Shown in pieces: positions 14,037 to 39,947 of a stretch of 40,000 nt of DNA. The notes beneath the pieces are model-generated. The model saw only the letters and a program-made list of their open reading frames with translations, was not told the origin of the DNA and searched no databases. The DNA is from Anaerolineaceae bacterium (lineage in GTDB: Bacteria > Chloroflexota > Anaerolineae > Aggregatilineales > Phototrophicaceae), in NCBI GenBank assembly GCA_020634165.1, contig JACKCF010000002.1, positions 17,767 to 57,766 of the forward strand. Reading direction: 5' to 3'. Position 1 is the first letter of the stretch. Every line of letters starts with the position of its first letter. Position numbers and translations under genes: made by a program.

Positions 14037-14038
14037 AG

Positions 14039-20090: not shown

Positions 20091-20131
20091 CTTATGGAGT
20101 AAACAGGATTATAACCGAATCCTGACGTGGC

Positions 20132-20194: not shown

Positions 20195-20249
20195 ATCGGA
20201 AACCGGTTTGCATTGGAACCGGGTCAGTTTTGTTTTGCCGGAAGCCACC

Positions 20250-20927
20250 ATGAGCACTGTCACCGCCCGATCCGAGGCACTCGAAAAGACCATTCAGCAG
20301 CTGCAGCGCCAGTTCGGCCAGCAGGTGATTGCTGCTGCAAGCCGCTTGTCGCAGGCTGAGGTGTTGCACACAGGCGTCACTGCCCTGGATACGGCGCTGG
20401 GTGGCGGATTGGCAGTCGGCCAAATCAGCGAGCTGCGTGCGCTACCCGGTCATGGGGCAACCTCACTGGCGATGCGCCTCATTGCTTCGGCACAGGCAGC
20501 AGGCCGAATCGGTATTTTCATGGATCTGGCAGATGCCTTCGATGCCAGCGCTGCCCACCATGCTCATGTCGATTTTATGCGTTCGCACTTCCTGCTGGTA
20601 CAGCCGCCTTCGCCAACAGATGCCTTCATTTTTGTGCAGGCCGTGCTCCATGCCCGCATTCCCGGTATCGTCATCGTGCGACCGCATCCGCAGCAGCCCT
20701 TGCCCCAGCTGCCCTGGTCGCGGCTGAAAGGAGCGCTCGCCAGTTTGCCGCTGGTCGTCGTCGTGATTCAGCCGCCTGCATCAACCGAAATCGAGGCCGC
20801 AGGCACGCGCCTGCTTTTGAAGCGCGTATCCGGTGACAATACGGTGCAGATTCGCATTCTGCGCCATCCATTGGGCAAAGCCGGGCAGGTAGTAAGAGTT
20901 CCCCTGTTGCCGGAAGGGTCGCGCTGA
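20250..20927 (+). CDS. imuA: ImuA-like RecA-fold protein of the imuA-imuB-dnaE2 mutagenesis cassette
   Basis: LDTALGGGLAVGQISELRALPGHGATSLAMRLIA is a RecA/ImuA-type P-loop region. Its stop overlaps the imuB start (TGATG). I prefer the ATG at 20250 (MSTVTAR...) because the candidate SOS boxes lie within the longer track ORF. Confidence 0.75.
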   Translation: MSTVTARSEALEKTIQQLQRQFGQQVIAAASRLSQAEVLHTGVTALDTALGGGLAVGQISELRALPGHGATSLAMRLIASAQAAGRIGIFMDLADAFDASAAHHAHVDFMRSHFLLVQPPSPTDAFIFVQAVLHARIPGIVIVRPHPQQPLPQLPWSRLKGALASLPLVVVVIQPPASTEIEAAGTRLLLKRVSGDNTVQIRILRHPLGKAGQVVRVPLLPEGSR

Positions 20928-22108: not shown

Positions 22109-22365
22109 GTTACCTGTGGCTTCCGGGCATTCCGATCCGGGTGTGGCTCAGATATGGTGTGCCCAATCGTTTTCAGTGGGAACGGCAGTCCTTTTTTGTG
22201 GCGCACATCGTCGATAGCTGGCGCGTTGATACCGGCTGGTGGCGGCTGGAACGGCGTGCCTGTCAGTACTGGCAGATCACGACCACGACCCGGGTGCTGA
22301 TGGTCATCTACCGCGATGAACTGTCGCTCGAACCCGCATGGTTTCTGGAACAACTGGTAGATTAG
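22105..22365 (+). CDS. small conserved-looking protein between imuB and dnaE2 (Trp-rich; possibly a DUF6504-type imuB-associated protein)
   Basis: 86 aa with an ATGA overlap with the imuB stop; ends 3 nt before the GTG start of dnaE2. WRVDTGWWRLERRACQYWQI motif. The family name is from memory only. Confidence 0.5.
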   Translation: MSYLWLPGIPIRVWLRYGVPNRFQWERQSFFVAHIVDSWRVDTGWWRLERRACQYWQITTTTRVLMVIYRDELSLEPAWFLEQLVD

Positions 22366-22367
22366 TT

Positions 22368-25300: not shown

Positions 25301-25466
25301 CGTGCGTCCCGACATCTTCGGACGCTATGCCCGCATCATTCTGGATAGTCCGCTGCTGCTGGTGAAAGGCCTGCTGGAGCGTGGCGATGGTGGCACGATC
25401 AATGTGCTCGCGCATCAGTTTGCTGCGCTGCCGATGCAGACCTTACTGTATTTATGTCCGCGTTGA
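22368..25466 (+). CDS. dnaE2: error-prone DNA polymerase III alpha subunit DnaE2
   Basis: PHP domain start (V/M)GYVELHCHSCYSLKDGAS and polymerase core motifs (FDILGLGML, GLFQVES, RPGP). ~1030 aa. Alternative ATG at 22338 overlaps the preceding small ORF. Confidence 0.92.
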   Translation: MGYVELHCHSCYSLKDGASTPVELVQQAKALGMSALALTDHNAVYGAVEFCKAATEVGIKPIFGAEMTLDSGHHLTLLVKNLRGWSNLGHLITLAQFNAPKGEALIALDTFFGHTDGLIALTGCRNGLLAEHLIRKDRAATKSALKDLIALFGKDNLWVELQRHHLPGEKALIQQLVALAKSEQVGIVATNNVHYATPERKPLQDVLVCVEHLTNLDDAQARGLLRINHEYHLKSVRQMSDLFADYPEAITNTQLIADQCNFIPEYGYQDLPEFPTPNYLPAEVYLRQLCEAALAKRFSGETSKVRAQLEHELDVIRESRLSNYFLIVWDIVNYAGSQNILCQGRGSAANSLVAYLLHITPIDPIEHGLVFERFLSKERQVTPDIDIDFDSARREEVIQYVMQRYGTDHAAMTCTFITYRTKSALRDVGRALGVPPEWIERASKAVRGYRGANRKPLSFIDETVEEPLDDSVVEQIYALVEQLQGLPRHIGQHNGGMVIMRDILSQRVPIEPATMQDRVVIQWDKEALETVNLVKFDILGLGMLAAIQEASDTVLRLTGKPFRIEDLTFDDPAIFRMIAEADTIGLFQVESRAQAQLLPRFQPKNFSDIIIAISLIRPGPIQGGMVHPLLRRRTGREEVTYLYDALRPSLEETYGVIVWQEQVLLVARDIAGFTAGEGEQLRRALGAKNGYERVESFHDRFIMGAASKGISAEIAEAIFDQLRGFGGYSFAKSHAASFAVLVYASAYLRKYHPAAFYCALINAQPMGFWSVDVLTNDAARLGVKTLKVDINRSVARTEVLDAKNIRLGLTQVKSIGESSADRILAAREKGSFNSLEDLCRRTQLPERKIENLIQAGAVDAWGIPRRKLIWQAGLYKADEDELDLAYLAEELALPLQHGVQEQAMEYSVTGINTGDHLMSYARDWLRQRDTLASYELADCSHNSIVRVAGQNRVAQSPQTAKGMTFLTLEDEWGMMNIVVRPDIFGRYARIILDSPLLLVKGLLERGDGGTINVLAHQFAALPMQTLLYLCPR

Positions 25467-25525: not shown

Positions 25526-27286
25526 ATGAATGTCATCCGACTATTCATGTGGGGTTATCAAGACTCATTCTGGATAGAAGCGAAACTTGCCGCAGAAAAG
25601 GTCTTCAATCAACTTGACTCTGACTTCAAACCGCAGGTTTTTCTCCTAGGTATACTTTCGGAAGATTTGGAGGAGCGATATCCTGTCTGTTTTGAGCCAG
25701 AAGAGTGTGGATTGCAGGAAGAGTGGTTTACTGAAATACAAGAGCAAGCCAAACATTATGAGGCAATCGACGAAGAAAGACACTATTTTCACTCCCATCC
25801 ATTGTCGCAAGAAAAACACGAGCAACACCTCAAGCTCAAGGCTTTGCGCAAAGCCTTACTGGAAATATTGAATTCACACAATAGCGTTAGTACAAATTAT
25901 GAGGTTTTTTGCTCTTATCCAATTTTGGTAAGCGGATATCGTGTTTTTGTTGTACTGAAGCTCAATGAAGCTTGCTATCAAAAATATTATGCACTAAATA
26001 CTACCCATTTGAGACGAGATAAAATACCTACTTCCTTGATTGACGCAGTGATTTTAGAGTATTTTGCTGCTTGTCAGAGAGCTCTAATGCTACCTAATCC
26101 GGGAGCAGGACTTAAAACCTTAGAACGAGAACCGACGGAGATTATCAACTTGGCTGGTCGATTCTTAATGTATACGCCAGCGCTAAAGAGTGAAGCTGGC
26201 AACAATATTGCTTCATATACGTTATTTGAAGACTGCAACACCATTTCATCTCTGACTTACGAAGGGGCAGAAGGTCGTGGAAAGATAATTCTCGCTCCAC
26301 CCAATCATCCTAATGTTTCGATTGATATTTTATTTGCCAAACCTGTTGCTTTCAAGAATTTTGGTGCAGTACGAAAACTACTAGAACTTTGCGGTCATCG
26401 TGAAAGCCTCATTGCTGATTCAACCTCAATTTATGGATTAGGTTACGTATCAGGCACTTACGATGTGAGGTATGAAAACTTGTTTCAAATCAACTTCACT
26501 CGGCAGCATTCATGGGAACTGGTTCATGCTCAACATACTATGATGCGCGTAAAATATCGCCAAGCAAATATCCCAAGTTCGGTAATTAATGAAACCAAAT
26601 TCAGAACAGACGCTGGACGTATTTTCCCAAACATTGAACCCAAACAAATTGAAGCGCTGCTTGAACTAATTGTCGCCGCGACTAAACAAAAACACGGGGC
26701 TCTGGTCATAATTGCTGAAGACGCAGAACAAGAAGCAACCAGACTTGCAAATGAATCAACTGTCATACAACCTATCCCATTAACTCCTGAACTGATGAGT
26801 TTGGTTACGGCTATTGATGGAGCTGTTCTTGTTTCACCTGATGCAACCTGTTTTGCAATAGGAGTTATATTAGATGGCCGAGCTACGCCAAAGGGTAACC
26901 CCGCAAGAGGTGCTCGCTATAATTCAGCGATTCGTTACGTTGAAAGTCAAAATCAAAGCCTTGCAATTGTAGTTTCCGAGGATGGCGGAGTCAATTTAAT
27001 TCCTAATCTAATGCCACAAATACGCAAGTCTGAACTTATACGACACATCGAAATTATAGGGGAAGTACACACTTCTGAGAAGCGTGATCGCATAGCTTAT
27101 TATGCATCTGAAGAATGGCTAAGATCACATCAATTTTATCTCTCGAAAGAACAATGCGACAAATTAAATATGATGATGAGAGAGATAACACGGGGTTTCC
27201 TACGTGAAAGTGGATGGGGTATTGAACACAATGATCTTCAACCTCATGAAGATATGAATGAATCATATTTCATGATCGAAGATTGA
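25526..27286 (+). CDS. 586-aa protein with unassigned N-terminal ~370 aa and a C-terminal diadenylate-cyclase-like (DisA_N/DAC) domain with altered catalytic motif
   Basis: HGALVIIAEDAE (from aa 390), IDGAVLV (D431-G432-A433), GARYNSAIRY (R464-Y465-N466 where DACs have RHR) and AIVVSEDGGVNLI align to the DAC pattern GALIVI / HDGA / GTRHRAA / VSEETG. Confidence 0.6.
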   Translation: MNVIRLFMWGYQDSFWIEAKLAAEKVFNQLDSDFKPQVFLLGILSEDLEERYPVCFEPEECGLQEEWFTEIQEQAKHYEAIDEERHYFHSHPLSQEKHEQHLKLKALRKALLEILNSHNSVSTNYEVFCSYPILVSGYRVFVVLKLNEACYQKYYALNTTHLRRDKIPTSLIDAVILEYFAACQRALMLPNPGAGLKTLEREPTEIINLAGRFLMYTPALKSEAGNNIASYTLFEDCNTISSLTYEGAEGRGKIILAPPNHPNVSIDILFAKPVAFKNFGAVRKLLELCGHRESLIADSTSIYGLGYVSGTYDVRYENLFQINFTRQHSWELVHAQHTMMRVKYRQANIPSSVINETKFRTDAGRIFPNIEPKQIEALLELIVAATKQKHGALVIIAEDAEQEATRLANESTVIQPIPLTPELMSLVTAIDGAVLVSPDATCFAIGVILDGRATPKGNPARGARYNSAIRYVESQNQSLAIVVSEDGGVNLIPNLMPQIRKSELIRHIEIIGEVHTSEKRDRIAYYASEEWLRSHQFYLSKEQCDKLNMMMREITRGFLRESGWGIEHNDLQPHEDMNESYFMIED

Positions 27287-27615: not shown

Positions 27616-29499
27616 ATGCCGAGTTTCACGGTTGAGTACAATTCAAAGGGACGCTTGGGACAATTCAGCTTTGAGAATGGGATAACTAATATCTCAACAC
27701 CTTTTATGTTCCCAGTGGCTTCAACAGTGACTGGCACAACAGCAAATGGGGGCGGAATATGGAAGTATATTCTTCAGGCATATCCAGATACTGATACGGA
27801 TGTTAATCAGGCCCTCATGCGTCGAGGGATGCCCATTCTTTCACAAGCACTTCAGTTCCTGGATTATGGTGTTAGCAAAAACAAAGTTAATCTTTGGCGG
27901 CAACAGTCGATCCGGAAGATGTATAATGAAGCACATAGAATGGACTATAAGGCACCTATTTTTCTTGATTCTGGTGGATTCAAGTTAATGTGGCGTGAAG
28001 GTCTCAATCTTGATGAATATGGGATCAACCTAAGTCCATCAAAAGAAGCACATAGCATCTTATGTCTGCAGCATGACTTGGGTGCGAACATTATTGCCAG
28101 CCTAGATTATCCAATACCCCCCAATCTTGCTCCGTCTGAAGCTAAGCAAAGAATGAAAAGAAGTCGTAGAAATGCTATCACTGTTGCTCGCTATCTGCGG
28201 GATGGAGAATTTTCAAGCTGGAGACCTTTTCTTTACATGCCAGTTCATGGGTTGTCACCGGAAGCAATCTCAGCATATGTAAAAAACCTATTCAATAGCG
28301 TATATACCTATGGGCTTGGTAATGATCCCATCGGAATTGCGGTAGGCTCTCTTGTCCCCCTGCGATTCTCTCGCACAAACCTATATCGGATCATCACAAT
28401 TGTCGATGCCGCAGTAAAAGCAATACCTGCCAAATACCGAGATCGAATCCCTGTACACGTTTTTGGTGTCACAGGAATCTTAATTCCGTTTTTAGCATAC
28501 TGCGGTGTTGATACCTATGATTCAAGTACTTATGTTAAGGAGGCCATTAATCTTAGATACATGCATCCCGATACAAGAGTTGGTCATGCTGTATTGGAAA
28601 TGACAGAAGATGATTTCATTTGCGATTGTGATGTTTGTCGGAATATTAAATTACTGGAATTACAAGAAGCTCTTGCGGCTGAGGGAACGGGCAAACCTTT
28701 AGTCCAATCTGGTCACTACAAAAGTAAATATTATGCTGATATTGCCTTACATAACTTGGAACAAGACTTCAAAATATTACGAGAAACGAGACATGCCATA
28801 AAACAAAATTATATGGCTGAGTTTATCTTGCAAGTGGCTGAGCGATTCCCACGAATGCGATATGCACTTGATGGTCTCTGTGACACTAATAAGGATTTGA
28901 GACTCAAAGCATCCAAACGCATACAACCTGTTATAAAAACAAAAAAAATAACCAAATCGATTGTTTTTCAGACACTTTCTCATACCCCGGATGATTTTAA
29001 TATTGCACATATGAATGGACATATTAACAGATCATATCCTCGTATTCTGTTATTGCTTCCATGCTCGTCAGACAAACCTTATTCTGATTCAAGAACACAT
29101 AAGTACGTTGAAAAGCATATACATGACTATATTCCTGGAATGAGAGATAAAATTCATAAGGTTTCATTGTCAGGGCTCTATGGGCCCGTTCCCGAAGAAT
29201 ATGAAACATGCAAACCTGTACTTGACTATAACTATCGTCTAATTCCGAAAAACGAAGCGCAGATAGAACTAGTCACTACACGGCTTGTTGAATATCTTGA
29301 AATTCACGGTGCAAAATATCTACATTGCGTAGCGTATGCAACGAGTAAGGCTTATCGTTTGGTATTTGAAAAAACAGCAGAACAATACCCATCCCTGACA
29401 CTTTTACCCACTGCTCCCAAGTCTAAACGACTTACAGAGTTTTTCAGAACAAAAAACATCCAAGAATTAGTTAACATGATAAGTGATATGCTTGATTAA
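27616..29499 (+). CDS. TGT/DpdA-like (tRNA- or DNA-guanine transglycosylase family) protein fused to an ArcS-type (DUF5591-like) C-terminal domain
   Basis: TGT motifs FLDSGGF (D118), CGVDTYD (D299, D302) and the Zn site CDCDVC (C336, C338, C341) with a later H in IALHNL. The C-terminal PCSSDKPYSDSRTH (aa 482-495) fits the ArcS motif PC-X3-KPY-X2-S-X2-H. Confidence 0.75.
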   Translation: MPSFTVEYNSKGRLGQFSFENGITNISTPFMFPVASTVTGTTANGGGIWKYILQAYPDTDTDVNQALMRRGMPILSQALQFLDYGVSKNKVNLWRQQSIRKMYNEAHRMDYKAPIFLDSGGFKLMWREGLNLDEYGINLSPSKEAHSILCLQHDLGANIIASLDYPIPPNLAPSEAKQRMKRSRRNAITVARYLRDGEFSSWRPFLYMPVHGLSPEAISAYVKNLFNSVYTYGLGNDPIGIAVGSLVPLRFSRTNLYRIITIVDAAVKAIPAKYRDRIPVHVFGVTGILIPFLAYCGVDTYDSSTYVKEAINLRYMHPDTRVGHAVLEMTEDDFICDCDVCRNIKLLELQEALAAEGTGKPLVQSGHYKSKYYADIALHNLEQDFKILRETRHAIKQNYMAEFILQVAERFPRMRYALDGLCDTNKDLRLKASKRIQPVIKTKKITKSIVFQTLSHTPDDFNIAHMNGHINRSYPRILLLLPCSSDKPYSDSRTHKYVEKHIHDYIPGMRDKIHKVSLSGLYGPVPEEYETCKPVLDYNYRLIPKNEAQIELVTTRLVEYLEIHGAKYLHCVAYATSKAYRLVFEKTAEQYPSLTLLPTAPKSKRLTEFFRTKNIQELVNMISDMLD

Positions 29500-29615
29500 T
29501 ATCTCTATAACTAACCAAAAATCGCATATGAATATATAATAGTAATCCTTACCTAAATTACATAACTTAAATCGAACTGTTTGTGGGCGTGCCAAGTAAT
29601 GTATGAGGAAATACT

Positions 29616-32600
29616 ATGGTTAGTAATCAGATTCTTCAAGAAGATTTCGATGCTCTAAAATCATCTTTTTTGCTAATTAATCAGGATAACAATGTTCCCA
29701 CAACAATGTTTGTTGAATCTTATAGTCAAATAGTCCCCTCAAAGACCCGTGTCGAAATTCGTGAAGGTTTGTACATCCCTCGACCATTGGAAGTCGCTCG
29801 AATCCTCCGACATTTGAAACAAAGATTTACCCCAAATGGTAACTATGCTTCCTTGGTAAGTCGAATTCGTGCAGAGATCATACTTCGTGAGCGACCTTAT
29901 CGAAATACAAAACCAGAAGATGTACCACAATCGCTGCGAAATATTGCTGAAATCGGTCGTCTCAATAACATAATTGAGTTTCGTTATTCTGAATTCCAGT
30001 GGCGTGGGTGGCAAATTGTGCTAGAGGCATTAGCAAAATCCCAACTGGGCCAACCCGCAGGAGTAGTGGCGACAGCACCAACAGGTTCTGGTAAAACAGA
30101 AACATTCATGTTGCCCATCATCACTGACACTGTAGAAGCGGCAGCGCGAGGTGCAGAAAGACATTTTGTTTTTATTTATCCGAGGCGTGCGCTAGCCCAA
30201 GACCAATTATCTAGGGTTCTACGTTACGTAAAAAATGCGTGTAATCACTTTAAAATGCCCGATCATCGCATAATTGTTGGCATTCAATTCACAGGCATTG
30301 CTTCAAGTAGAGAATCCACGTTACGAAACCGCAATATATTTCACAACAGGCGCAGTTTTAAGTTGTTAGATAGATGTCCGTGGTGTGGCAAACGTAAACA
30401 ATTGATTTTTCAAACACAGGGAGAATATTCATACCTACAGTGTTCTGAGTGTGAGAATCGAGTCGCTGTTTCACTCTCTAAAAACGATCACAGCTCATTA
30501 AATCCTAATTTGATGATTACAACTGCTGAGTCCTTAGACAATATGTATATGGATTGGGATTTTCGTGATTATATACCGAAGATCGACGGTATTATTTTTG
30601 ACGAGGCACATTTATTCAACCAAGTATATGGAGCTCATATCCATCACCTGATTCAGCGCGTTAGAAATATTGTCCGCGAAATCTCTCGAAAGGAACTGCT
30701 ACTAATTGCTTCTAGTGCTACCATTTCTGAGCCTGCTGATTTTGCTAATCGCTTATTTTATGGTAATGAGAATCCTCCTAGTAATATTTATTCCATTGAC
30801 GCCAATCAATATGAAATGAACCCAAGTGGTATCGAAACATTTTTCTTTTTGCAGACTGATAATGCGCGACAAACGATGTCGACAATGATTCAAACGGTGA
30901 TGGCAACAATGCATGGAGCAATTAATGATGATCGACGGGCTATCATATTCGCAAGCTCATTGGACACTGTGGGACGCTTAAAAGTACAGTTTGACGATGC
31001 CGAGATAAACCAACAACTTTGGAGGATGAGGATCAACAACCAAGATATTAATGTTTTTCAATTTGAGAATGTATCTTGTCCGCGCACAACACCGTATATT
31101 TGCTCACTATATGATATGGGAGAATGCTGGCGTGGCATCTTAGGCGGAATACAATGCCATGAGAATCCAATATTGGGGATGCGTTCCAGTAGTTTGGAGA
31201 CACAAACAATTACAGGAAATACACAAGGCAGCCGATCACTTGATAAGCCAGTTATCATCGGAACATCTGCCTTAGAAGTAGGCATTGATGATCCTACAGT
31301 ACAGACAACTTTTCATTATCGACCTCCTCGGACAGTCTTTGATTTTATCCAAAGAAGAGGCCGGGCAGGACGGAAAGAAAATGATACTGCTTATACAGTG
31401 ATGGTCTTGGGACAAGATTCAACAGATCATTTCTATCTGGTGCGTCGTCATCGCCTAATTGCTGGTCAATACTCTCTCCCACTCAACCCTAACAATCCAG
31501 TAGTTACTCGAATTCATGAATTACTTAGTCAAAGTCGGGCTGAAGGTTTTCGACTCGTCAGTAGCAACGGAAGTGAATTGAATGGTACATGGCTTTGGCT
31601 TGTTCATACACTCCAAAATTCGTCAATAGTTTCTTCGGCGCATGAAGCGCTACTGAACGAAGTGTTACGGGCGCGCAGCTTCGATGTAAAGAAAGCAAAA
31701 TTACTGAAATGGATTAACGAAAATATTGAAGCTCTTGAAAATCAACTGGCTGATCGTGGTATGTTCAGGACAAATAGATATCCTACACTTCCTATGCTTG
31801 TGGCTGTGTTTGACGATATTGTAGCGGCGTATGATTCTTGGGTTGAAGAAGAAGATGTAACAACACAAGATACAGCAAAAAAGTTAATAAGTTATCAGCA
31901 TAGACTAGGGGATATGTATTCGGCTTTTGATGGTAGAGCATACGATCGCAGGCGGTTTACAGAGGAGTTTGATGTTGTCAGTCAAACATTACAACGGATG
32001 ATCGCTAACATACAGGAAGAACAGCGGGAAGTTCGAGACAGATTTCGTGAGACAAGGGCATGGTATGATTTCTTTTTTCATCTACGTAAATTATATGATC
32101 AGGATTGGATTTTTTACACTTTTTCATATGTAGTGAAGTATATTTATCAAGCACTATTCTTCTTAAATCGCGGATTTGATAACCAAACGCAAAATGAGAT
32201 TGATGTATATGTTCCCGATAATTATTTCGGCAACATAACTCCAATGCGTGTTCATATTGGTGATCAGAATAAGCGAACAACAGAGCCGATAACTTATTTG
32301 GAATCGTTATTTTATCCCTATCGTATTAGCTACCGTTATGCAAGTGATGCCGCCCACACCCAGCTTGCTCCAATGTATATGCTAGATAGCCGCAGCAGAG
32401 AAATAATTGGACCTAACCAAGTAAGAATAAAGCCGGCGGCCTATGGTTTGTCGATTGCAGATCCAGAAAACCCTGACTATTCAGTTCGCAAAGTTCGTGA
32501 AATCCGTGTTATGGAGCTTCAGGCTGATGCCCGTCAAAACATTAGCATGTGTCAAACTTGTTTCCGCACTTACGATATAGATTTTGACCAAATGAATTGT

Positions 32601-33473
32601 GAATGTGGCGGCGATATTGCTCAGGGTTCAATATTTGTGGAAAAAACATATACAAGACAAGGGATACACGAGCAACAACGGCGAATAAATATAGGTAATA
32701 GTTTTAGCATAGTACCTGCTCTGGATACGTGGACAAAAGTTAACGGTTCCCAAGTTACGTTTACACCTTTGAATGGCGGACGAAGAATTCGGTTCAATGC
32801 TTGGTTGAGCCCTAGCTTATATTTTTCTATCCCAACTAAGGGTATTTCTTGGAGGGTGCGTGCCATTGCTAATCATGTTGAGGAAAGCCTTCATGCTGCC
32901 GCCCATGTCTTGGTTAAGGCAATGGCATCAGTTGTAGGCGTGCGTGAAGATCAATTAGCATATAGTTGGCAGTCTGAGAGTCAGGAAGTAGTAGTTTGGG
33001 AAAAATATGAGGGTGGTGCAGGGCTATGTGAGATATTTGCAGATCGTTTGCAACGTAATCCTTTAGAAGTCTATCAGGAAATGGTCTCTGTTGTAGCATG
33101 TCCCATATATTTATCAGAACAAAAAGGGCATTTGTGGGAGACAGATGATGAACTGCGAAATTACTTATCTCATGAATTTGGACTTGCCCCTGAAACAGCA
33201 TTACTTAAAGAAATTATCGATAACACCATATCGGAATCGAGATCGAATACTTCCGAGTTGGTCTGCACAGATAATGATGGTTGTCCAGTATGTATTACAT
33301 CCATCACGAATGCTCAGGATGATCAACCGAGTCGTTTGATCGCTTGGAGGTTAATCGGTGATTTAATAAAGGTATTTGAAGAGAGCGAATGGAAAGAAAT
33401 TACCCCAGAACAATTCGCCCCTGTAGTGTGGGTAGATAACAATGCGGAACTAATATATGTCTTGGTCTTCTAA
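29616..33473 (+). CDS. large DEAD/DEAH-box (YprA/MrfA-like) helicase with inserted zinc ribbon and C-terminal DUF1998-like 4-Cys domain
   Basis: Walker A APTGSGKT (K160), motif Ia YPRRALAQDQ, FDEAH (D329-H332), SSAT and QRRGRAGR. Zn ribbon CPWC...CSEC (aa 254-279) lies between motifs I and II. C-terminal CQTC (979-982), NCECGG, WEKYEGGAGL (1128-1137) and CPVC (1223-1226). Confidence 0.8.
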   Translation: MVSNQILQEDFDALKSSFLLINQDNNVPTTMFVESYSQIVPSKTRVEIREGLYIPRPLEVARILRHLKQRFTPNGNYASLVSRIRAEIILRERPYRNTKPEDVPQSLRNIAEIGRLNNIIEFRYSEFQWRGWQIVLEALAKSQLGQPAGVVATAPTGSGKTETFMLPIITDTVEAAARGAERHFVFIYPRRALAQDQLSRVLRYVKNACNHFKMPDHRIIVGIQFTGIASSRESTLRNRNIFHNRRSFKLLDRCPWCGKRKQLIFQTQGEYSYLQCSECENRVAVSLSKNDHSSLNPNLMITTAESLDNMYMDWDFRDYIPKIDGIIFDEAHLFNQVYGAHIHHLIQRVRNIVREISRKELLLIASSATISEPADFANRLFYGNENPPSNIYSIDANQYEMNPSGIETFFFLQTDNARQTMSTMIQTVMATMHGAINDDRRAIIFASSLDTVGRLKVQFDDAEINQQLWRMRINNQDINVFQFENVSCPRTTPYICSLYDMGECWRGILGGIQCHENPILGMRSSSLETQTITGNTQGSRSLDKPVIIGTSALEVGIDDPTVQTTFHYRPPRTVFDFIQRRGRAGRKENDTAYTVMVLGQDSTDHFYLVRRHRLIAGQYSLPLNPNNPVVTRIHELLSQSRAEGFRLVSSNGSELNGTWLWLVHTLQNSSIVSSAHEALLNEVLRARSFDVKKAKLLKWINENIEALENQLADRGMFRTNRYPTLPMLVAVFDDIVAAYDSWVEEEDVTTQDTAKKLISYQHRLGDMYSAFDGRAYDRRRFTEEFDVVSQTLQRMIANIQEEQREVRDRFRETRAWYDFFFHLRKLYDQDWIFYTFSYVVKYIYQALFFLNRGFDNQTQNEIDVYVPDNYFGNITPMRVHIGDQNKRTTEPITYLESLFYPYRISYRYASDAAHTQLAPMYMLDSRSREIIGPNQVRIKPAAYGLSIADPENPDYSVRKVREIRVMELQADARQNISMCQTCFRTYDIDFDQMNCECGGDIAQGSIFVEKTYTRQGIHEQQRRINIGNSFSIVPALDTWTKVNGSQVTFTPLNGGRRIRFNAWLSPSLYFSIPTKGISWRVRAIANHVEESLHAAAHVLVKAMASVVGVREDQLAYSWQSESQEVVVWEKYEGGAGLCEIFADRLQRNPLEVYQEMVSVVACPIYLSEQKGHLWETDDELRNYLSHEFGLAPETALLKEIIDNTISESRSNTSELVCTDNDGCPVCITSITNAQDDQPSRLIAWRLIGDLIKVFEESEWKEITPEQFAPVVWVDNNAELIYVLVF

Positions 33474-33942
33474 GTCGTTACAATGGATGATTCCTGGTAT
33501 CTTTTTAACTGCAAAGAAGTCAAGCAAAATAGTTATAATGAGTCCTTGGATTGATGATGTGGAATTACTTATATATTCTTGGAATGGGCGAGAACAATTA
33601 GCTGGCAATGTTTTACTTTCAAATGTAATGAAATGGCTGCATAGGAATCGCAATAATCATTTTCTAGCTTACGTACGGACAGATCAACTGTATCCTAGGA
33701 TTAATCCTCGGTTAAATCGTGTACAAAGTCGAGCCTCTTCAGCTTTGGAAGTTCGAGATATTCAATATTTGCACGCGAAATTACTAATCACAGATGCAAT
33801 GGTTTTAGAAACTTCTGCGAATTTTCTGACTTATAGCATTCACAGAAATGTCGAAAGTCTCTATATTAGAAAAAATCCGTTACAAAATGCATCAGCTTTT
33901 GCTCAGGACTTCATTACTAGACACGGCCACAGTCAACTATGA
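33457..33942 (+). CDS. phospholipase D-family (single HKD) nuclease-like protein
   Basis: HKD motif LHAKLLITDAMVLETSANF (H106, K108) and an N-terminal IVIMSPWI strand typical of PLD/Nuc. Overlaps the helicase 3' end; an alternative start is at 33487. Confidence 0.75.
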   Translation: MSWSSKSLQWMIPGIFLTAKKSSKIVIMSPWIDDVELLIYSWNGREQLAGNVLLSNVMKWLHRNRNNHFLAYVRTDQLYPRINPRLNRVQSRASSALEVRDIQYLHAKLLITDAMVLETSANFLTYSIHRNVESLYIRKNPLQNASAFAQDFITRHGHSQL

Positions 33943-34346
33943 AGATTTATGTTGCAGGACCACTGTTCAATACTATGGAGCGCAGCTACTTAGAGGAAAT
34001 CGCAACTGCACTTGAGAATGCAGGTTACAATACATTTCTTCCGCACAGAGATGTTGGGTTATTAGATAGTATTGATGATGTTAATCGAGAGCATATATTC
34101 CGCGCAGATATGACTGCGTTGGATGACTGCGATATTTGTGTTGCATTACTAACTGGACCTGATCATGATTCAGGTACCAGTGCAGAAATTGGCTATATGT
34201 ATGCCAAAGGAAAACCATGTTTTGGTATCACTGATGATATGCGATGGATGAATAATCTCATTTGGGGGCTTTGTAACTCAGGCAACAATATCTGTACATC
34301 AATCGAGACATGCATTCAACTGCTAAAAACGCAAATTAGTCAGTAG
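33939..34346 (+). CDS. nucleoside 2-deoxyribosyltransferase-family protein
   Basis: MKIYVAGPLFN N-terminus and DSGTSAEIGYMYAKGKP (catalytic-Glu context) match the NDT/Rcl family pattern. ATGA overlap with the PLD gene. Confidence 0.75.
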   Translation: MKIYVAGPLFNTMERSYLEEIATALENAGYNTFLPHRDVGLLDSIDDVNREHIFRADMTALDDCDICVALLTGPDHDSGTSAEIGYMYAKGKPCFGITDDMRWMNNLIWGLCNSGNNICTSIETCIQLLKTQISQ

Positions 34347-35013
34347 TAATTAAAGGATTAAGCTGCGTATTAGCGTTGATAGCATCGATACCCTCCTGCC
34401 TTTTTATAAAGTTTACTGTCAGATAAGTTAGGGGAGTTGCCAGAGACTCATACAATGTTTTGAACAACCATTGTGTAATGACAGCCAATACCAAATCATT
34501 GGTTGCCATGGTTCCAGCGAAAGCAATCACAATAAATATTAGAGAATCAAAGCCCTGACCAACAACAGTAGAAGTTATAGTCCTAGACCATAGCCAGCGT
34601 CCTTTTGTTAGTTTTTTCATTCTATCGAGGATATACGCATTCAAGAATTCGCCAATTAGATATGCGATAAATGAAGCAAAAAGTAGGCGAGGAGTGTAAC
34701 CAAGGATTCGTTCATATGCTGCTTGTCCGTCCCAGAAATTGGCAGATGGAAGAAGTTGTCCTGCGACAATGCCTGCCACAGCAACAAGATTGCAGAAAAA
34801 ACCAAGCCATATTACTCGACGTGCATTTCGAAATCCATAGACCTCGGTAAGAATATCACCTACGATGTAGCTGATTGGAAAAATGACTATGCCCGCGGGC
34901 ATGATAAAGCCCCAGATATCCACCAGCTTTACTGCCGCAATATTGGCAGTGATTAGAGATGTAATAAATAGACCTGCAATTGATACAAACCAAATTGAAT
35001 ATTTGTTTGACAT
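34336..35013 (-). CDS. yhhQ: queuosine-precursor (preQ0/preQ1) transporter, YhhQ/VUT family
   Basis: Six-TM protein with ITANIAAVKLV...PAGIVIFPISYIVGDILTEVYG, characteristic of YhhQ (DUF165). Confidence 0.8.
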   Translation of the reverse strand: MSNKYSIWFVSIAGLFITSLITANIAAVKLVDIWGFIMPAGIVIFPISYIVGDILTEVYGFRNARRVIWLGFFCNLVAVAGIVAGQLLPSANFWDGQAAYERILGYTPRLLFASFIAYLIGEFLNAYILDRMKKLTKGRWLWSRTITSTVVGQGFDSLIFIVIAFAGTMATNDLVLAVITQWLFKTLYESLATPLTYLTVNFIKRQEGIDAINANTQLNPLITTD

Positions 35014-35025
35014 GTAGTCTCCGGT

Positions 35026-35694
35026 TTACTGATAATGTAGTGGATCCTTGATCCCCACATCGTGAAAGGCTTTCAGTCGTTCAGCACATGTAGGACAGTT
35101 TCCACAAGCTAAATCTTCGCCTCTATAACAAGACCAAGTTTTACTATAATCTACTCCAATCTTTAATCCAATCTGCAGAATATCTGTTTTTGTGAAATTG
35201 ACAAACGGTGCTCTGATAAGAATTTGATTTGGCTGCAAATCGTAAACGGCATTTACTCTAGACGTGAATTCAGATGTCGTATCCCAATAACCATAGATAT
35301 CGTGTTTCTGAGCACCATAAAAAACTTCTTGCACTCCTAGTGTCTCTGCCCATGCAATTGCAAGTGATAGAAATATCATGTTTCGATTAGGTACATAGGT
35401 CGAAGGCGGTACTTCTTTGGAGACATGTGTTGCTGAAGGAATCTCCATATCTTTATTGACCAAAGAAGACTTGAGCCATAGATCCTGAAGAGGTGATAGA
35501 TCAACAATCATATGGAGTAACCCAAGAGATTGGGTGTGCATTTGAGCAAATCGCACCTCCTTGTTATGACGTTGACCATACTTGAATGTAATAACTGCAG
35601 GGATTCGCTTTCTTTCATGCAAGTAATACAGCAATGTTGTGCTGTCAAATCCACCGCTTAATATCACAACCGAATCAGACCTACCTTCATTCAT
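35026..35694 (-). CDS. queC: 7-cyano-7-deazaguanine (preQ0) synthase QueC (divergent)
   Basis: PP-loop VVILSGGFDSTT, YVPNRN and the C-terminal Zn cluster CYRGEDLACGNCPTCAERL. It has YWDTTSEF where canonical QueC has YPDCRPEF. Confidence 0.85.
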   Translation of the reverse strand: MNEGRSDSVVILSGGFDSTTLLYYLHERKRIPAVITFKYGQRHNKEVRFAQMHTQSLGLLHMIVDLSPLQDLWLKSSLVNKDMEIPSATHVSKEVPPSTYVPNRNMIFLSLAIAWAETLGVQEVFYGAQKHDIYGYWDTTSEFTSRVNAVYDLQPNQILIRAPFVNFTKTDILQIGLKIGVDYSKTWSCYRGEDLACGNCPTCAERLKAFHDVGIKDPLHYQ

Positions 35695-35868
35695 ACGCTT
35701 ATATTTCCCAAATTCCTAACACCATACTTGTATATGAAATAGTAACTAATTGTACACACTAAAAATAGCTACTAAAAATCGACCTTGACTTAGCGCTTGT
35801 AGGTAAACACTGCGCCTTTGCATCCCTGTCTAATATCCTACTCGCCCATTCGTTAAAATCATGCCTTT

Positions 35869-36420
35869 GCTGCCTTTCTCATTGCACAGTACCACGCCAC
35901 CCCACAGCCTCATACCTGTAGACAGGTACGGCTACGGGTTTGCTTCTGGCTTGTGCCGTTTCACTCATAGCAAACCCGTGCCGTCCTTCGGATGGGCTGT
36001 GGGGAACCCCGACGTGGTATGGCCTGTGCAGAAAGGCAGCTTAACAAAAGCATATTCGGATTACCGACTGGACGGTGTTTCGTTAGCCAGGTCTCGTTTG
36101 CTCGAAAGGGCGCGTTGTAATCCCCGGAGCCTCTGTGCTCCGACGGTCTCCTGTAGACGGTCGCTCTGATCCGATATGCCATCCCTGCCCTCAACAGTCC
36201 GGTTGAGCGGTGCTATAGCGGTCGTGGATGCTGGTGAATTGTGATATTCACCAGACTGGAAGGGTCAACGTCTCGAGGTTTTCGTTCGTGCGAAGCCGGG
36301 GCGCATCCAGGCTGTGAACAACGGTCAAGCGCAGAATTACATCTGAGCTTGTCTCGCACCGATAGGCGGTAGACAACAGATTTTTCACTACTCACGCTCA
36401 TCACGATCTACGGATTGTGG
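35869..36420. other. GC-rich, ORF-poor, highly self-complementary non-coding region (candidate large structured RNA or ssDNA-active element)
   Basis: Nested colinear helices: 35869-79/36030-40 (11 bp), 35884-89/36024-29, 35891-96/36013-18 and 35900-09/35995-36004 (10 bp). These enclose hairpins 35914-27 and 35934-79. A second domain is closed by 36050-61/36169-79, with hairpins at 36125-42, 36190-207 and 36231-54. Confidence 0.45.
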
Positions 36421-36470
36421 TGGGCGTTTTTGCTTACCCACACACCATTTCACCTTTCAGGAGGTGCGAT

Positions 36471-37355
36471 ATGATCGAAATCACGATCCACACAGATGGC
36501 TCGTGCCAGACGCAGACGCACAGCGGTGGCTGGGCAGCGGTGCTGATGAGTGGCACCCATCGTATGGTTCTCAGCGGCAGCGCTGAGGAGACAACTGTCA
36601 ATGCAATGGAATTGATGGCAGCAGTGAACGGACTGAAAGCGCTCAAGAGAGCGAACCAGACCGTCATGCTGGTGACCGACTCGCAGTATGTAACGCGCGG
36701 CGTAAACGAGTGGTTGTCCGCTTGGATCGAACGCGGCTGGCTGACAACGAACAAGAATCCAGTAGCGAACCGCAATCTGTGGGAGCAGATGAACGGACTG
36801 CTGGCACAACACCATGTCACAGTGATGTGGGTACCGCGTGAGCAGAACATCGAAGCAGATGGGCTAGCTCAGGAAGCGCGGCTCAATCACGGATTAACCG
36901 CGACGAAAGCAGTGCAGACGATCACACACCTGATGATCGCAGGATCACGCACAGCCACATCGCAAATGCTGGCCTATGCCCGCCGTGCAGTGCGTCGCGC
37001 TCACGACCGCGGTTACACGGTGATCGTTGGGGACAACCCAAAAGGCGTGGATATGGCGGTGATACGTGAGTGCCGTCGCTTGAAAACACCCGTGATTGTG
37101 GCGGGTCCGAGCAACTTTCCGCGCAACGGCGGCTGCAAGCACGGGCAATATGTGATGGTTCATCCCGACACATACTCTGCGGCCAATGGGCGCAGGCTCA
37201 ATCGTTACACAGTACGGGATCGCTGGTTGGCAGACACGGCTCAGATTGGTCTGTTTATCTGGAATGGTGCAAGTCCCGGTACGAAGGCTGGGTTTGATTA
37301 TATGATCGGGCGCAACAAGGATGCCCACCTGATTAATTTCGGTGCGGAGGTGTAA
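36471..37355 (+). CDS. RNase HI domain fused to a SLOG/DUF2493-like (DprA-related) C-terminal domain
   Basis: RNase H DEDD residues in the contexts HTDGSC, AMELMA, VTDSQY and NIEADGLA. The C-terminal half IVGDNPKGVDMAV...PVIVAG resembles SLOG/DUF2493. The RBS caggagg precedes the ATG at 36471, so the track start at 36417 is unlikely. Confidence 0.75.
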   Translation: MIEITIHTDGSCQTQTHSGGWAAVLMSGTHRMVLSGSAEETTVNAMELMAAVNGLKALKRANQTVMLVTDSQYVTRGVNEWLSAWIERGWLTTNKNPVANRNLWEQMNGLLAQHHVTVMWVPREQNIEADGLAQEARLNHGLTATKAVQTITHLMIAGSRTATSQMLAYARRAVRRAHDRGYTVIVGDNPKGVDMAVIRECRRLKTPVIVAGPSNFPRNGGCKHGQYVMVHPDTYSAANGRRLNRYTVRDRWLADTAQIGLFIWNGASPGTKAGFDYMIGRNKDAHLINFGAEV

Positions 37356-37357
37356 CC

Positions 37358-38833
37358 ATGAGTGAACATATCATCCCGACTGGGATGCAGATTGTCGCGA
37401 CAGGCACGGGCGAAGCTGAGACGGCTGCCCCAGGCATTCTTGTAGAGATGAGTCAGCACAATGCATCGGACACGCCATGGTTCTGGCTGCGCGGCGATAC
37501 CTACCCGCACCGCGAGCTACTCAAACGCTGGGGCTGTCGCTGGAGCAAAAAGCGCAAGTCATGGTACTACATCGGGGAACAACTTCCCGCTGCGGTGCAG
37601 CAGCTCATCGAGCAGATAAACATGCGGTCAGGCGAAACTGTTCCGGTCGACGATCAAAATCCATGTTCAGTAGAAAACGCGGTACAAGAAACACCAGTCG
37701 CGTCAGATGAAGCGCCACGCCTGTTCGACATGGGCGAAGCGGTTTACGCACGACACGAACTGGAGATGCCTGACGGTCGGTCAGTGCCCACTGGCACGCA
37801 CGGAACGATCATACGTCTGTATAACCGCAATCCGACGCATGGTTGGAGCTATGATGTGGACTTTGTGGGAATCGGAATTGGCTGGTTCTTCGAGCGTGAG
37901 CTGAGCAACCTCGAACCCACACCGGGAATCCGCATCACACGAGGGAGCGTGGTGCCAGCAGGAACCGTTCCACCGCCAACGGATGCCGAGATCAAGAGTG
38001 CTCTGATAGACGGTGGATATCAGCCGGAAGCAGTCGTAACTCAGGCCGAAAAGCCGTCCGTATCCCAATCTGATGAAGTTGCCGCCGAGTTGGACACCAT
38101 TGAGCCAAAAATCCGCATTATCAAACCTGTGCTGGATTTGCCTGACGGGGCTGAACCCGATCCGGTGATCGCAGCAGTCCGTGAGATGAAATCCGCAACT
38201 TTGCCTGTCTTCCAGACCACATCGTCAATAAATGGCAAACGCAATCTCGTTCGCATTCCGCAATCCCCCTGCGGAGAGCTGACAGGTAGCATCACGGGCA
38301 GCGTGTGGTGTTATGGCTATGCCGTGCATGAGGGCATCTGTGTGTACGTGAATTGTGGAGGGCCGAGAATGGCTGTCGAGGCGATTCGCGCGAAGCTTGC
38401 CAAAGGCGACATCGTGAATTGTGTGCCGATGGATGCGCCTGCGATTGAGCTGACGGCGGGTGAAGGCAACACGGGCATGTACACCGCCTTCATGCAGAAC
38501 ATCCCCGAAGCGAAGTTCACCAGCCTGATTCTGGTGCATGAGATGCTGACGCAGCCCAACTATGGCGGCAAATCGATCACATTTATGGTGCATGAATCCG
38601 ATGAGCAGGCCATGATCCAACTGCGCCATCACATCACGAAGCTGGTGAAAGTACCCGTTTTCATGGAATGGACGAGCTATCTGTGGCACACGGGACAGGC
38701 CGCGAAGCTGCTGCGACCAACGCGCACAGGCGGCGACATCAAACTATGGACGGTTGATCTGGATGCCGATGCATGGACACGGCTGATTACAGGTGGATTG
38801 GCTCAAGAGATTATTGATCTACCTGAAAGGTGA
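37358..38833 (+). CDS. hypothetical protein (491 aa), translationally coupled to the RNase H-SLOG gene
   Basis: The N-terminal WFWLRGDTYPHRELLKRWGCRWSKKRKSWYY resembles the small module at the N-termini of some plasmid/phage primase-type proteins (DUF5710-like, from memory). A middle SH3-like segment reads GTHGTIIRLYN...YDVDFVGIG. The C-terminal ~250 aa are unassigned. Confidence 0.6.
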   Translation: MSEHIIPTGMQIVATGTGEAETAAPGILVEMSQHNASDTPWFWLRGDTYPHRELLKRWGCRWSKKRKSWYYIGEQLPAAVQQLIEQINMRSGETVPVDDQNPCSVENAVQETPVASDEAPRLFDMGEAVYARHELEMPDGRSVPTGTHGTIIRLYNRNPTHGWSYDVDFVGIGIGWFFERELSNLEPTPGIRITRGSVVPAGTVPPPTDAEIKSALIDGGYQPEAVVTQAEKPSVSQSDEVAAELDTIEPKIRIIKPVLDLPDGAEPDPVIAAVREMKSATLPVFQTTSSINGKRNLVRIPQSPCGELTGSITGSVWCYGYAVHEGICVYVNCGGPRMAVEAIRAKLAKGDIVNCVPMDAPAIELTAGEGNTGMYTAFMQNIPEAKFTSLILVHEMLTQPNYGGKSITFMVHESDEQAMIQLRHHITKLVKVPVFMEWTSYLWHTGQAAKLLRPTRTGGDIKLWTVDLDADAWTRLITGGLAQEIIDLPER

Positions 38834-38945
38834 AGTATTTCATGCGGTTGACAATCCTCCGTTCGACATAATACAATTGCCACGAAGGTTCACAATAGGC
38901 TTCTACGTGTTTTTGAGGGCAGGCCTCTATCCTCTGAGTGAGATT

Positions 38946-39947
38946 ATGACAACTGTTAAAAACCAGCATTTTGTGCCTCAGTTCTATCTAAGACAATTTG
39001 CAAACTCACAGTCACAAGTAAATGTCTTTGACAAATTGCAACAGAAAACGTTTCGAGCAAACATCGCAGATGTTGGTAGCGCTCGATACTTTTATGACCT
39101 TTCACAGGAGCAGGTTGCCTCATTTGAAGCTCAAATCGAAAAAAAGAAAGAAAACGGTGAGCTAGATCCTGCGATTGAGGACGAAGTCCGCGCACGCATG
39201 ACTAATGTACAGTGGGTAGAACAGAAACTCAGTACATGGGAACATCGATTTGCAAATGTTTTGAATGATGTAATCATGACGCTCGAAAAGCGACGACGTT
39301 TCAAAAAACGATTCCGAAGCAACATTGCACAACTTGTTGCATTACAATACTGGCGAACATATGAACGTCGTCAAGGTATGATGGAGTTCGATAGAAAATT
39401 GGAAACCGAAGTAATGAAGCTTGTCAACCGGATGAATGAGGTCAAGCAAACTAACTTCACTGCAGAAGATTTAGGAATTGCATACGATCCTGATAGGACG
39501 GCAGATCGTCATAAGATGATTATGCTTGACACCGAAATCTTGAATGAGACTGCCAATATATTTAACAGTCACATATGGGTGATTGGTGTGAATGATACCA
39601 AAGTCCCGTTATATACGTCTGATAATCCTGTGACACAGCGAGCACATAAAACAGATGATTGGCGGAGTAATACAGGCATTGCCTCTCCTGGAATAGAAAT
39701 TTTCTTCCCTTTAAGCCCTAAGTATGTGCTCAAAATGTTTGAGAGAAGCTATTTCCATACTATGGAATCATATGATGGGCGATTGATCTATCTCAAAGAA
39801 GAGAACATCGTCTACAACAACAGCCATCAAGTACAGTCTGCATATAGACAAATATATAGCCCCACAAGTGATTTTCAGCTGATTGAGCAGATGCTCGCAG
39901 AAGAACCAGAAATCGCGGAGCCGAAAACACGTTTCAACGTCGGTTAA
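38946..39947 (+). CDS. DUF4238 domain-containing protein
   Basis: The N-terminus MTTVKNQHFVPQFYLRQFAN carries the HFVPQFYL signature of DUF4238. AT-rich relative to the preceding genes. I prefer the ATG at 38946 to the track start at 38793, which overlaps the previous gene. Confidence 0.75.
   Translation: MTTVKNQHFVPQFYLRQFANSQSQVNVFDKLQQKTFRANIADVGSARYFYDLSQEQVASFEAQIEKKKENGELDPAIEDEVRARMTNVQWVEQKLSTWEHRFANVLNDVIMTLEKRRRFKKRFRSNIAQLVALQYWRTYERRQGMMEFDRKLETEVMKLVNRMNEVKQTNFTAEDLGIAYDPDRTADRHKMIMLDTEILNETANIFNSHIWVIGVNDTKVPLYTSDNPVTQRAHKTDDWRSNTGIASPGIEIFFPLSPKYVLKMFERSYFHTMESYDGRLIYLKEENIVYNNSHQVQSAYRQIYSPTSDFQLIEQMLAEEPEIAEPKTRFNVG

Follow-up and report, generated by a model that had tools for sequence, protein, structure and literature searches.

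In a stretch of 40,000 nucleotides from an Anaerolineaceae bacterium (contig JACKCF010000002.1, positions 17,767 to 57,766), which is referred to here as the window, queC (35026-35694, minus strand) and the gene of an RNase HI-fusion protein (36471-37355, plus strand) flank a noncoding region of about 600 nucleotides (35850-36470). We suggest that this region contains a composite control element that would head a block of 'establishment' genes in an integrative conjugative element (ICE). The interpretation that we favour, tentatively and with slightly less than even confidence, is that the first part of the element (domain 1) is a promoter in single-stranded DNA (ssDNA) resembling Frpo of plasmid F, and that the remainder (domains 2 and 3) specifies a new leader RNA, likely a processive antiterminator of the ICE establishment operon. 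The region has a conserved, covarying structure, strand signatures that differ between its parts, an intrinsic terminator and a recurrent gene context. From these observations we infer that domain 1 might act as a promoter in ssDNA with a start site near 36030, that the leader could bring about antitermination, and that the minus strand would be the one transferred.

An initial annotation, made from the sequence alone, had described the region as a large structured RNA or ssDNA element with nested long-range helices, and checks of conservation and covariation are both strongly positive. More than 280 homologues of the downstream RNase H-fusion protein are available, nearly all from Anaerolineae or other Chloroflexota metagenome-assembled genomes and often several per genome. 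Of the 80 loci fetched, more than 50 have the noncoding region upstream, with 70-84% nucleotide identity, and this identity often exceeds that of the protein encoded by the following gene (55-60%). A covariance model of domain 1 (R1) likewise finds more than 50 loci, always in the orientation of the RNase H gene. All of the helices that had been proposed recur in the consensus structure of 36 homologues (Table 1). When these 36 sequences are aligned over the first ~340 nucleotides of the element (alignment A2), 92.7% of the alignment cells at paired positions are indeed paired, compared with 34-44% when the partners are slid, and double changes are seen in 61 of 99 pairs. Shuffled alignments give 35.7 +/- 2.7 such pairs, with none of 500 shuffles reaching 61, and the slid-partner controls give 19-26. 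Moreover, folding of 35850-36470 is far better than that of shuffled sequences on the plus strand (z = -6.9) and on the minus strand (z = -6.0). The result refines the original proposal in that the region is probably both things at once, domain 1 being an ssDNA hairpin and the rest a plus-sense RNA with a terminator.

The region was also said to hold no credible open reading frame (ORF) and to belong to no known RNA family, and we come to the same view. A Pfam scan of four internal ORFs gives no match (best E = 0.25), the overlapping ORFs are not kept across loci, and the lengths of insertions and deletions among homologues are not multiples of three; the idea of a coding element was rejected because the internal ORFs lack Pfam matches and are not preserved. 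Rfam models give no match in the whole window at the gathering threshold, a null result that covers RNase P, tmRNA, group I and II introns, riboswitches, GOLLD, ROOL, HEARO, OLE and RNA I, and at E <= 10 the segment 35600-36600 yields a noise match to mir-10 alone (E = 4). A blastn search of the region against 72,556 plasmids found no match, and comparison of the window with itself returned short chance matches apart from an 11-mer region in the leader of ssb. The 3' part of the element occurs in two variants, A (the type seen in the window) and B, in which part of domain 3 is replaced, and in a divergent clade domain 1 and the linker TTAACAAA persist beside a different domain 2.

Domain 1 is, as judged from its sequence, a candidate ssDNA promoter folded on the minus (template) strand. 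The minus strand is the more stable in 31 of 36 sequences when RNA parameters are used and in 35 of 36 with DNA parameters. Wobble counts, weighted over 21 sequence clusters of which one comprises 10 sequences, give 31-37 G.U pairs on the plus strand, 40-73 G.U pairs on the minus strand (equivalent to A.C on the plus strand) and 79-101 other mismatches, so that A.C equals or exceeds G.U in frequency and the other mismatches outnumber both. Because there is no excess of G.U over A.C and the opposite strand is more stable, domain 1 is unlike a plus-strand RNA, although it still folds well as one (-96 kcal/mol).

The minus strand of domain 1 also carries promoter-like features. An extended -10-like element, TGGTACTGT in the window, follows the pattern TGnTAnnnT, and its fixed positions are kept in nearly all of 26 clusters (T in 24, G in 25, T in 24, A in 23 and the final T in 26), with the three middle n positions varying and showing compensatory covariation. 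The T/G and TA...T positions of this pattern are those read by sigma-70-type factors. In the other arm, the mirror sequence on the plus strand is TAnnnC/G and lacks the final T. The -35-like position, weak in the window, is occupied by TTGACA in L004, by CTGGAC in the divergent group and by TTTGCA or TTTGAG in others, with a spacing of 15-17 nucleotides. A bulge in the would-be template arm, facing the -10-like element, is found at the same place in all homologues, with a length of 5-8 nucleotides and a variable sequence. No conserved duplex promoter is seen upstream of domain 1, where the flanks are variable, and a duplex promoter there or in the TTAACA linker was rejected since none is conserved and the spacing is wrong. 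A polymerase starting on the folded minus strand would run rightwards and make plus-sense RNA from ~36030, which fits the plus-RNA signatures seen just after domain 1.

A simpler member of the same hairpin family stands directly upstream of ssb. The initial annotation had noted an 11-mer, GGCTTGTGCCG, common to the element (35948-58) and the ssb leader (11495-505), and the link is real and informative: the same apical module tops the ssb-leader hairpin at 11485-11522 (28.3 bits, E = 2e-5). The domain 1 covariance model matches the four available ssb-leader homologues with 27-42 bits. This hairpin is conserved in L081-L084, and the minus strand is more stable in all five ssb leaders; folded as DNA, the segment 11280-11630 gives -82.2 kcal/mol on the minus strand (z = -5.6) and -68.8 on the plus strand (z = -2.2). 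Its minus strand in the window reads TTGACC (11481-76), a 16-nucleotide spacer and TGc-CATCGT (11462-54), an instance of the pattern TTGAC(C/G/A), 16 nucleotides, TGc-CAyNGT found across homologues. The -10-like hexamer lies in an internal loop that is conserved on its non-template side and variable on the facing one. Neither a large RNA nor a terminator stands behind the hairpin in the ssb leader.

The mechanically called ssb ORF from 11375 (to 12010) engulfs the leader hairpin; the conserved start with a ribosome-binding site is at 11627 and gives a protein of 127 residues. Further copies of the hairpin were sought in the window and two candidates were rejected: GACTTGCGCCG at 16209 lies in structured, GC-rich sequence without a long hairpin, and the site at 22234 is within coding sequence. 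The first of these belongs to a noncoding, structured segment of 61% G+C (16110-16345) upstream of the operon for an RHH-like protein and a coupling protein. This segment contains GACTTGCGCCG, with one mismatch to the apical 11-mer, together with CGTTCGGAAAGAC, which resembles a motif of the divergent leaders, and its minus strand is the more stable with DNA parameters (-51.2 versus -45.5 kcal/mol). The segment could be an oriT or another ssDNA signal.

Domains 2 and 3 and the terminator resemble ordinary plus-sense RNA in their pairing patterns. Helices 12-18 of domain 2 are 82-100% paired with many double changes, and its weighted counts are 32-108 for G.U on the plus strand, 11-24 for G.U on the minus strand and 23-30 for other mismatches, so that the plus-strand wobbles are 3-4.5 times as frequent as those of the minus strand. 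For domain 3, RNAalifold applied to 13 variant-A sequences predicts 79 pairs, terminator included, of which 35 have at least two Watson-Crick types, and the raw cells of domain 3 and the terminator (36184-36432) in these sequences comprise 802 Watson-Crick pairs, 127 G.U, 20 A.C and 78 other mismatches. The linker between domains 1 and 2 is nearly invariant as TTAACAAA even where domain 2 differs, and would, given a transcription start at ~36030, be close to the 5' terminus of the leader. Our first reading, in which the whole element was a single plus-strand RNA, came from an RNAalifold structure for the plus strand with 255 G.U against 28 A.C pairs; it was dropped because prediction on both strands gives equal energies and the G.U excess derives from invariant 'pairs' found on the plus strand only. 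A minus-strand RNA or cis-antisense system was also rejected: neither a promoter nor a terminator that would serve it was found, and the plus-sense character of domain 3 and the terminator is clear.

The terminator itself is conserved, with compensatory changes and G.U pairs, and in 36 of 39 loci, including those in which a DUF488 gene intervenes, a terminator-like hairpin with a T-run stands about 45 nucleotides ahead of the start codon of the RNase H gene. The terminator and the ribosome-binding site are too close together for a promoter to fit between them, and the RNase H gene and those that follow it therefore need read-through to be expressed. The commoner arrangement, variant B, has a translated DUF488-N3a gene, an ORF of 135 codons, between the structured region and the terminator, which means that any help from the leader must act at a distance. 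A local antiterminator pairing was considered and rejected: the best partner available to the 5' half of the terminator is GTCGTGGATGC in domain 3, and this pairing is weak and would be inoperable across the DUF488 ORF. At variant-B loci (L021 3936-3952 and equivalents) the terminator hairpin overlaps the DUF488 stop codon (CCGGTGATGAACCGG), so that translation of DUF488 could influence termination.

The RNase HI-fusion protein matches Pfam RNase_H with E = 5.8e-32 as well as RNase HI structures in the PDB. Its predicted model (pLDDT 87.8) suggests an alpha/beta fold for the C-terminal half; the Foldseek matches listed for the model are all to the RNase HI domain, and the 'SLOG' label that the initial annotation implied for that half is neither confirmed nor refuted by them. 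The gene after the terminator in L048, L043, L065 and L066 lacks the RNase HI domain and begins with the C-terminal alpha/beta domain (MIAGSR...), from which it follows that the two halves of the fusion are separable and that the element accompanies the second. The partner gene that comes next, c0, has 545 homologues, none with a Pfam domain; searches with the window protein were empty in Pfam, NCBIfam and PDB sequences, PHROGs gave one short match to the unnamed phrog_15863, and the AlphaFold model is poor (pLDDT 57.6). Relatives of c0 have ~600-630 residues and the copy in the window has 491, implying that about 120 N-terminal residues are missing. The conserved cassette consists of the element, an optional DUF488 gene, the RNase HI fusion, c0, an optional small protein and a DUF6094 methylase-SNF2 helicase, and in L161 it extends into a RepB-type primase (RepB_primase) and a Prok-Ub/E2/E1 set, with host-like genes immediately upstream of the element. 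These functions are of the establishment type. The cassette of the window is interrupted after c0 (37358-39947), where G+C falls at ~38.8 kb and a DUF4238 gene takes the place of the DUF6094-SNF2 helicase of other loci.

We propose that the element would work as follows. While it is single-stranded, for example during conjugative entry, the domain 1 hairpin would form in the template (minus) strand, and its stem would rebuild a promoter from a weak -35-like xTG, a spacer of 15-17 nucleotides and the extended -10 TGnTAnnnT, with the bulge in the template arm pre-distorting the duplex where melting begins. RNA polymerase would start near 36030 and proceed rightwards, from a promoter that would be incomplete in duplex DNA on the gene strand, by the same logic as Frpo of plasmid F. 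The simpler version of the hairpin would drive ssb. The plus-sense transcript would begin with a leader of ~400 nucleotides, made up of CUUAACAAAA and then domains 2 and 3, and this leader may act processively on the polymerase (cis-acting antitermination, compare put, EAR and canT) rather than through local switching between hairpins; processive action is the most likely mode because a translated DUF488 gene lies between leader and terminator in many loci. A more ambitious version, which we think unlikely, is that domains 2 and 3 are a new class of cis-acting RNA of ~350-400 nucleotides, made only from incoming ssDNA, that senses whether the template is single- or double-stranded. Starting at the hairpin promoter would leave the 5' segment (AGAAAGGCAGCUUAACAAAA) free, whereas read-through transcripts from duplex DNA would bury it in the domain 1 stem, and the 'entry' transcripts alone would then turn the polymerase terminator-resistant and express the RNase H, c0, methylase-helicase and primase genes.

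A number of observations weigh against the proposal of an ssDNA promoter joined to an antiterminator leader. The strand bias of domain 1 is modest, at ~4-5 kcal/mol, and the domain 1 sequences are phylogenetically correlated, as their grouping into 21 clusters, one holding 10 sequences, reflects. One clade has TCTGAT and two others have CAGAGT and GAGAGT where TAnnnT is expected, the -35-like hexamer of the window copy (TATGAG) matches the consensus weakly, and a generic promoter scan of the region reports nothing. There is no sequence similarity to Frpo of F, the best match of model R1 on the F leading region having E = 0.55. Hairpin 36125-42 of domain 2 favours the minus strand, with A.C in 25 of 36 sequences. 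An oriT, a relaxase and the transferred strand were not found in the data, and the equation of the minus strand with the T-strand rests only on gene orientation. At L161 and several other loci the element stands at the very edge of the ICE beside host genes, a position that an insulator or antiterminator acting at the RNA level fits equally well. Finally, if read-through transcripts also carry the leader, it is hard to name what the terminator would discriminate against.

The main alternative, which we regard as real but rather less than probable, is that the whole 560 nucleotides, domain 1 included, form one plus-sense cis-regulatory leader RNA with no ssDNA stage. Transcription of such a leader would come from upstream or, in the excised circular form, across its joint, and the leader would serve as an insulator combined with an antiterminator or attenuator for the ICE genes, compare T1 and canT of Tn916 or the pLS20 leader. 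It is consistent with the clear plus-RNA signatures of domains 2 and 3 and the terminator, with the good fold of domain 1 as plus-strand RNA (-96 kcal/mol), with the boundary position next to co-oriented host genes in L161 and others, where an insulator would be useful (PMC11658703), and with the long imperfect stem-loops known from leaders of conjugation operons (PMC13401043). It does not account for the missing G.U excess in domain 1 and the greater stability of the opposite strand in 31-35 of 36 sequences, for the conserved minus-strand TGnTAnnnT with its facing bulge, or for the copy in the ssb leader, which has no large RNA or terminator behind it; moreover, no conserved promoter lies upstream, and a zipper mechanism needs the terminator beside the long stem, which is not the case here. 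We think it quite unlikely that domain 1 and the ssb-leader hairpin are instead ssi signals, at which the host primase or the element's own RepB-type primase would prime complementary-strand synthesis on the transferred strand, with RNA:DNA hybrids trimmed by the RNase H of the element, an origin function comparable to that of ColE1 RNA II or RSF1010 ssiA/ssiB. The template-strand hairpin signature, an invariant apical loop whose mini-hairpin resembles a protein recognition site, the RNase HI gene directly downstream, and the RepB_primase gene in the same block of L161, RepB' being known to use structured ssi sites (PMC8567376), all suit this idea, as does the description of Frpo as both promoter and primer source in Masai and Arai (1997), as cited in PMC9849209. 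The TGnTAnnnT pattern and its spacing to xTG are, however, specific to promoters, the ssi sites of RSF1010 have 40 nucleotides as against 170-180 here, neither an RNA I-like antisense partner nor an Rfam match to ColE1-type RNAs was found, and no primase gene is seen in the window. Priming at ssi signals overlaps with our favoured reading rather than opposing it.

A stand-alone, trans-acting noncoding RNA of the kind of ROOL, GOLLD or OLE, ending at the terminator and leaving the RNase H gene to be read by leak-through, seems to us very improbable. A length of 400-560 nucleotides, an ornate multi-domain structure, a strongly conserved sequence, occurrence on mobile DNA in several copies per genome and a clean 3' terminator in window-type loci are all what such an RNA would show, but the commoner variant has a translated DUF488 gene between RNA and terminator, so that the terminator has to be assigned to the RNase H gene rather than to the RNA. 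Neither a promoter of its own nor an Rfam match was found, and the orientation is constant, the element always immediately preceding the same operon. Self-complementarity arising by chance in GC-rich DNA, or a decayed gene without function, could explain the short overlapping ORFs on both strands and is already refuted: nucleotide identity reaches 84% across loci whose proteins are 55-60% identical, compensatory changes occur in 61 pairs, the internal frames lack Pfam matches and preservation across loci, and the lengths of insertions and deletions are not multiples of three.

Contigs L001, L026, L033, L034, L038, L046, L049 and L163-L165 break within the element, 170-470 nucleotides before the RNase H gene, which is expected if near-identical copies recur within genomes. 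L014 carries two full copies of domain 1 (143 and 149 bits) within 990-2895 around an ORF of 423 residues, which on inspection of its sequence reads as an IS110-family transposase.

Compared with known systems, the architecture, the leader size, the apical module and the phylum are new, and the working logic resembles that of ssDNA promoters and antiterminator leaders. Like Frpo1 and Frpo2 of F and ssi of ColIb-P9, the element presents a long imperfect hairpin before co-oriented, presumably early genes that include ssb, here upstream of ssb and of the RNase H/methylase-helicase/primase block, and more than one related copy occurs per element, as in plasmid F, where Frpo exists in two related copies and one of these precedes ssb (PMC9849209). 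Plasmids related to F likewise have Frpo upstream of ssb (PMC9849209, PMC11541004). Folding favours the template strand over its complement both here and in F Frpo2, for which we obtain -100.8 versus -93.5 kcal/mol, and in both cases promoter or promoter-like elements are set in a stem that is irregular around the -10, and would be incomplete in the duplex on the gene strand. The leading genes of plasmid F point toward oriT, and the same geometry is assumed here. Sequence homology to known Frpo or ssi, by which such sites are recognised in PMC11541004, is absent. Frpo differs further in its length (~300 nucleotides as against 170-180) and in lacking the invariant apical module, and the element differs from it in having a three-way junction with two side hairpins, in relying, if it is a promoter, on an extended -10 with a weak -35, in residing in a host of the Chloroflexota (Anaerolineae) on an apparently integrative carrier and not a plasmid, and, for the window copy, in being followed by a putative ~400-nucleotide leader RNA and a terminator.

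The antiterminator side of the proposal draws on HK022 put, Bacillus EAR, Tn916 canT and pLS20 conAn, with which the element shares a structured RNA at the head of a long mobile-element operon, a downstream intrinsic terminator that must be passed for gene expression, and what would be action at a distance, since here the DUF488 ORF can separate the RNA from the terminator. Plus-RNA covariation in the leader, a terminator in 36 of 39 loci and a variable distance between the two are the arrangement seen here, and it is only from this arrangement that antitermination is suggested. The put and EAR RNAs have 70-120 nucleotides and the leader is much larger (~350-400 nucleotides); it has no Rfam match to any described antiterminator RNA (E <= 10), and no partner protein like ConAn1 of pLS20 was identified. 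The partner terminator of Tn916 insulates that ICE from host transcription (PMC11658703). The zipper-type attenuator of pLS20 is a conjugation operon leader in which the terminator adjoins a long stem and is absorbed into it (PMC13401043), and it resembles the present case in being a leader of several hundred nucleotides of a conjugative element, with a long imperfect stem-loop and a terminator before the first gene. Here, however, ~350 nucleotides of conserved structure, and often a whole ORF as well, stand between stem and terminator (in variant B the terminator lies beyond the 135-codon ORF), and the long stem lacks plus-RNA signatures. ROOL, GOLLD, OLE, HEARO and ColE1 RNA II are of the same size class and share a GC-rich multi-domain fold and an association with mobile DNA, ColE1 RNA II alone also having a functional link to RNase H; the element differs from them in its lack of covariance-model matches, its fixed 5'-leader position and orientation, the absence of a detected RNA I-like antisense partner and its composite strand signature. 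The RSF1010-type ssi for RepB' is a 40-nucleotide site that combines a hairpin (nucleotides 7-27) with a specific 5' hexamer, priming beginning 3' of the hairpin; the link seen here is the RepB_primase gene of the related locus L161.

Table 1. Features of the element, of the related ssb leader and of neighbouring genes (positions in the window).
Feature	Positions	Strand	Remarks
Domain 1	35869-36040	minus (template)	172-nt imperfect hairpin with three-way junction; helices 1-11 covary
Consensus helices 1-2	35869-79/36030-40
Consensus helix 3	35884-89/36024-29
Consensus helix 4	35891-96/36013-18
Consensus helix 5	35900-09/35995-36004
Consensus helix 6	35914-27		hairpin
Consensus helices 7-8	35934-79		hairpin
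-10-like element, extended (candidate)	35886-35894	minus	TGGTACTGT, TGnTAnnnT
-35-like element, weak (candidate)	35909-35914	minus	TATGAG (xTG), 17 nt upstream of the -10-like hexamer
Apical module	35944-35969		yCyGG-GCTTGYGCC-G-N5-CTCA, including mini-hairpin 35948-57; nearly invariant in 40 sequences
Bulge in would-be template arm	36020-36024		5 nt, TGGCC (plus), facing the -10-like element
Linker between domains 1 and 2	36040-36049	plus	CTTAACAAAA
Domain 2	36050-36179	plus	multi-helix junction
Consensus helices 12-13	36050-61/36169-79		closing stem of domain 2
Consensus helix 18	36125-42		hairpin
Domain 3 (variant A)	36184-36370	plus	nested helices with hairpins 36190-207, 36231-54, 36269-303 and 36323-54; the first two, proposed initially, are recovered in the variant-A consensus (RNAalifold)
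Intrinsic terminator	36394-36432	plus	15-bp stem, 4-nt loop, TTTTT; terminator scan
Ribosome-binding site	36452-57	plus	AGGAGG
RNase HI-fusion gene	36471-37355	plus
c0	37358-38833	plus	partner gene, 491 residues; follows the RNase H gene in 65 loci
ssb-leader hairpin	11419-11603	minus	simpler second member of the hairpin family, directly upstream of ssb
TGT/DpdA-like protein with DUF5591	27616-29499		Dpd-like cluster
DEAD/MZB helicase, 1285 residues	29616-33473		Dpd-like cluster
PLD-like protein, nucleoside 2-deoxyribosyltransferase, Vut_1/queT-type transporter, queC			Dpd-like cluster, further members
Defence-type cargo (ABC-3C; DAC protein)	12126-15736 and 25526-27286

Family scans of its proteins show the wider window to be part of a conjugative element with defence cargo. 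The element stands at the start of a block of richer G+C (~56% at ~35800-38800, as against ~41% in the surroundings), and the plus strand carries almost all of the backbone genes, which comprise ssb, an RHH-like protein, a type IV coupling protein, HU and imuA-imuB-dnaE2. The last of these, a mutagenesis cassette at 20127-25466 with 56-60% G+C, lies within the conjugative element, and a 'tRNA-His (anticodon atg)' called by ARAGORN at 25130-25213 falls inside the dnaE2 ORF and is probably a false positive. The cargo includes an ABC-3C system, which consists of a Cap4-nuclease/MC3/CTD7 protein and a DUF3732 ATPase on the minus strand, a DACNG-DACNH-DAC protein (DisA-type cyclase) that is defence-type cargo, and an AT-rich, Dpd-like 7-deazaguanine DNA-modification cluster (27616-35694) that adjoins the element on the left.

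We know of no described regulation of conjugation in the Chloroflexota, and to our knowledge ssDNA promoters have been shown experimentally for only a few enterobacterial plasmids and are elsewhere proposed from loose consensus matches. If our reading is correct, the element would represent a family of ssDNA promoters outside the Proteobacteria that is backed by compensatory evolution, a strand signature and a conserved extended -10, and the reading of early genes from incoming ssDNA would become a general, testable principle of conjugation. The leader is among the larger conserved bacterial leader structures without an Rfam family, and its pairing with a terminator before an RNase HI fusion points to a new mechanism of antitermination or establishment. 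It also gives a functional handle on the uncharacterised c0, DUF488-N3a and DUF6094-helicase families, and the covariance model together with the apical motif can be used to find such elements, and the heads of establishment blocks, in Anaerolineae metagenomes.

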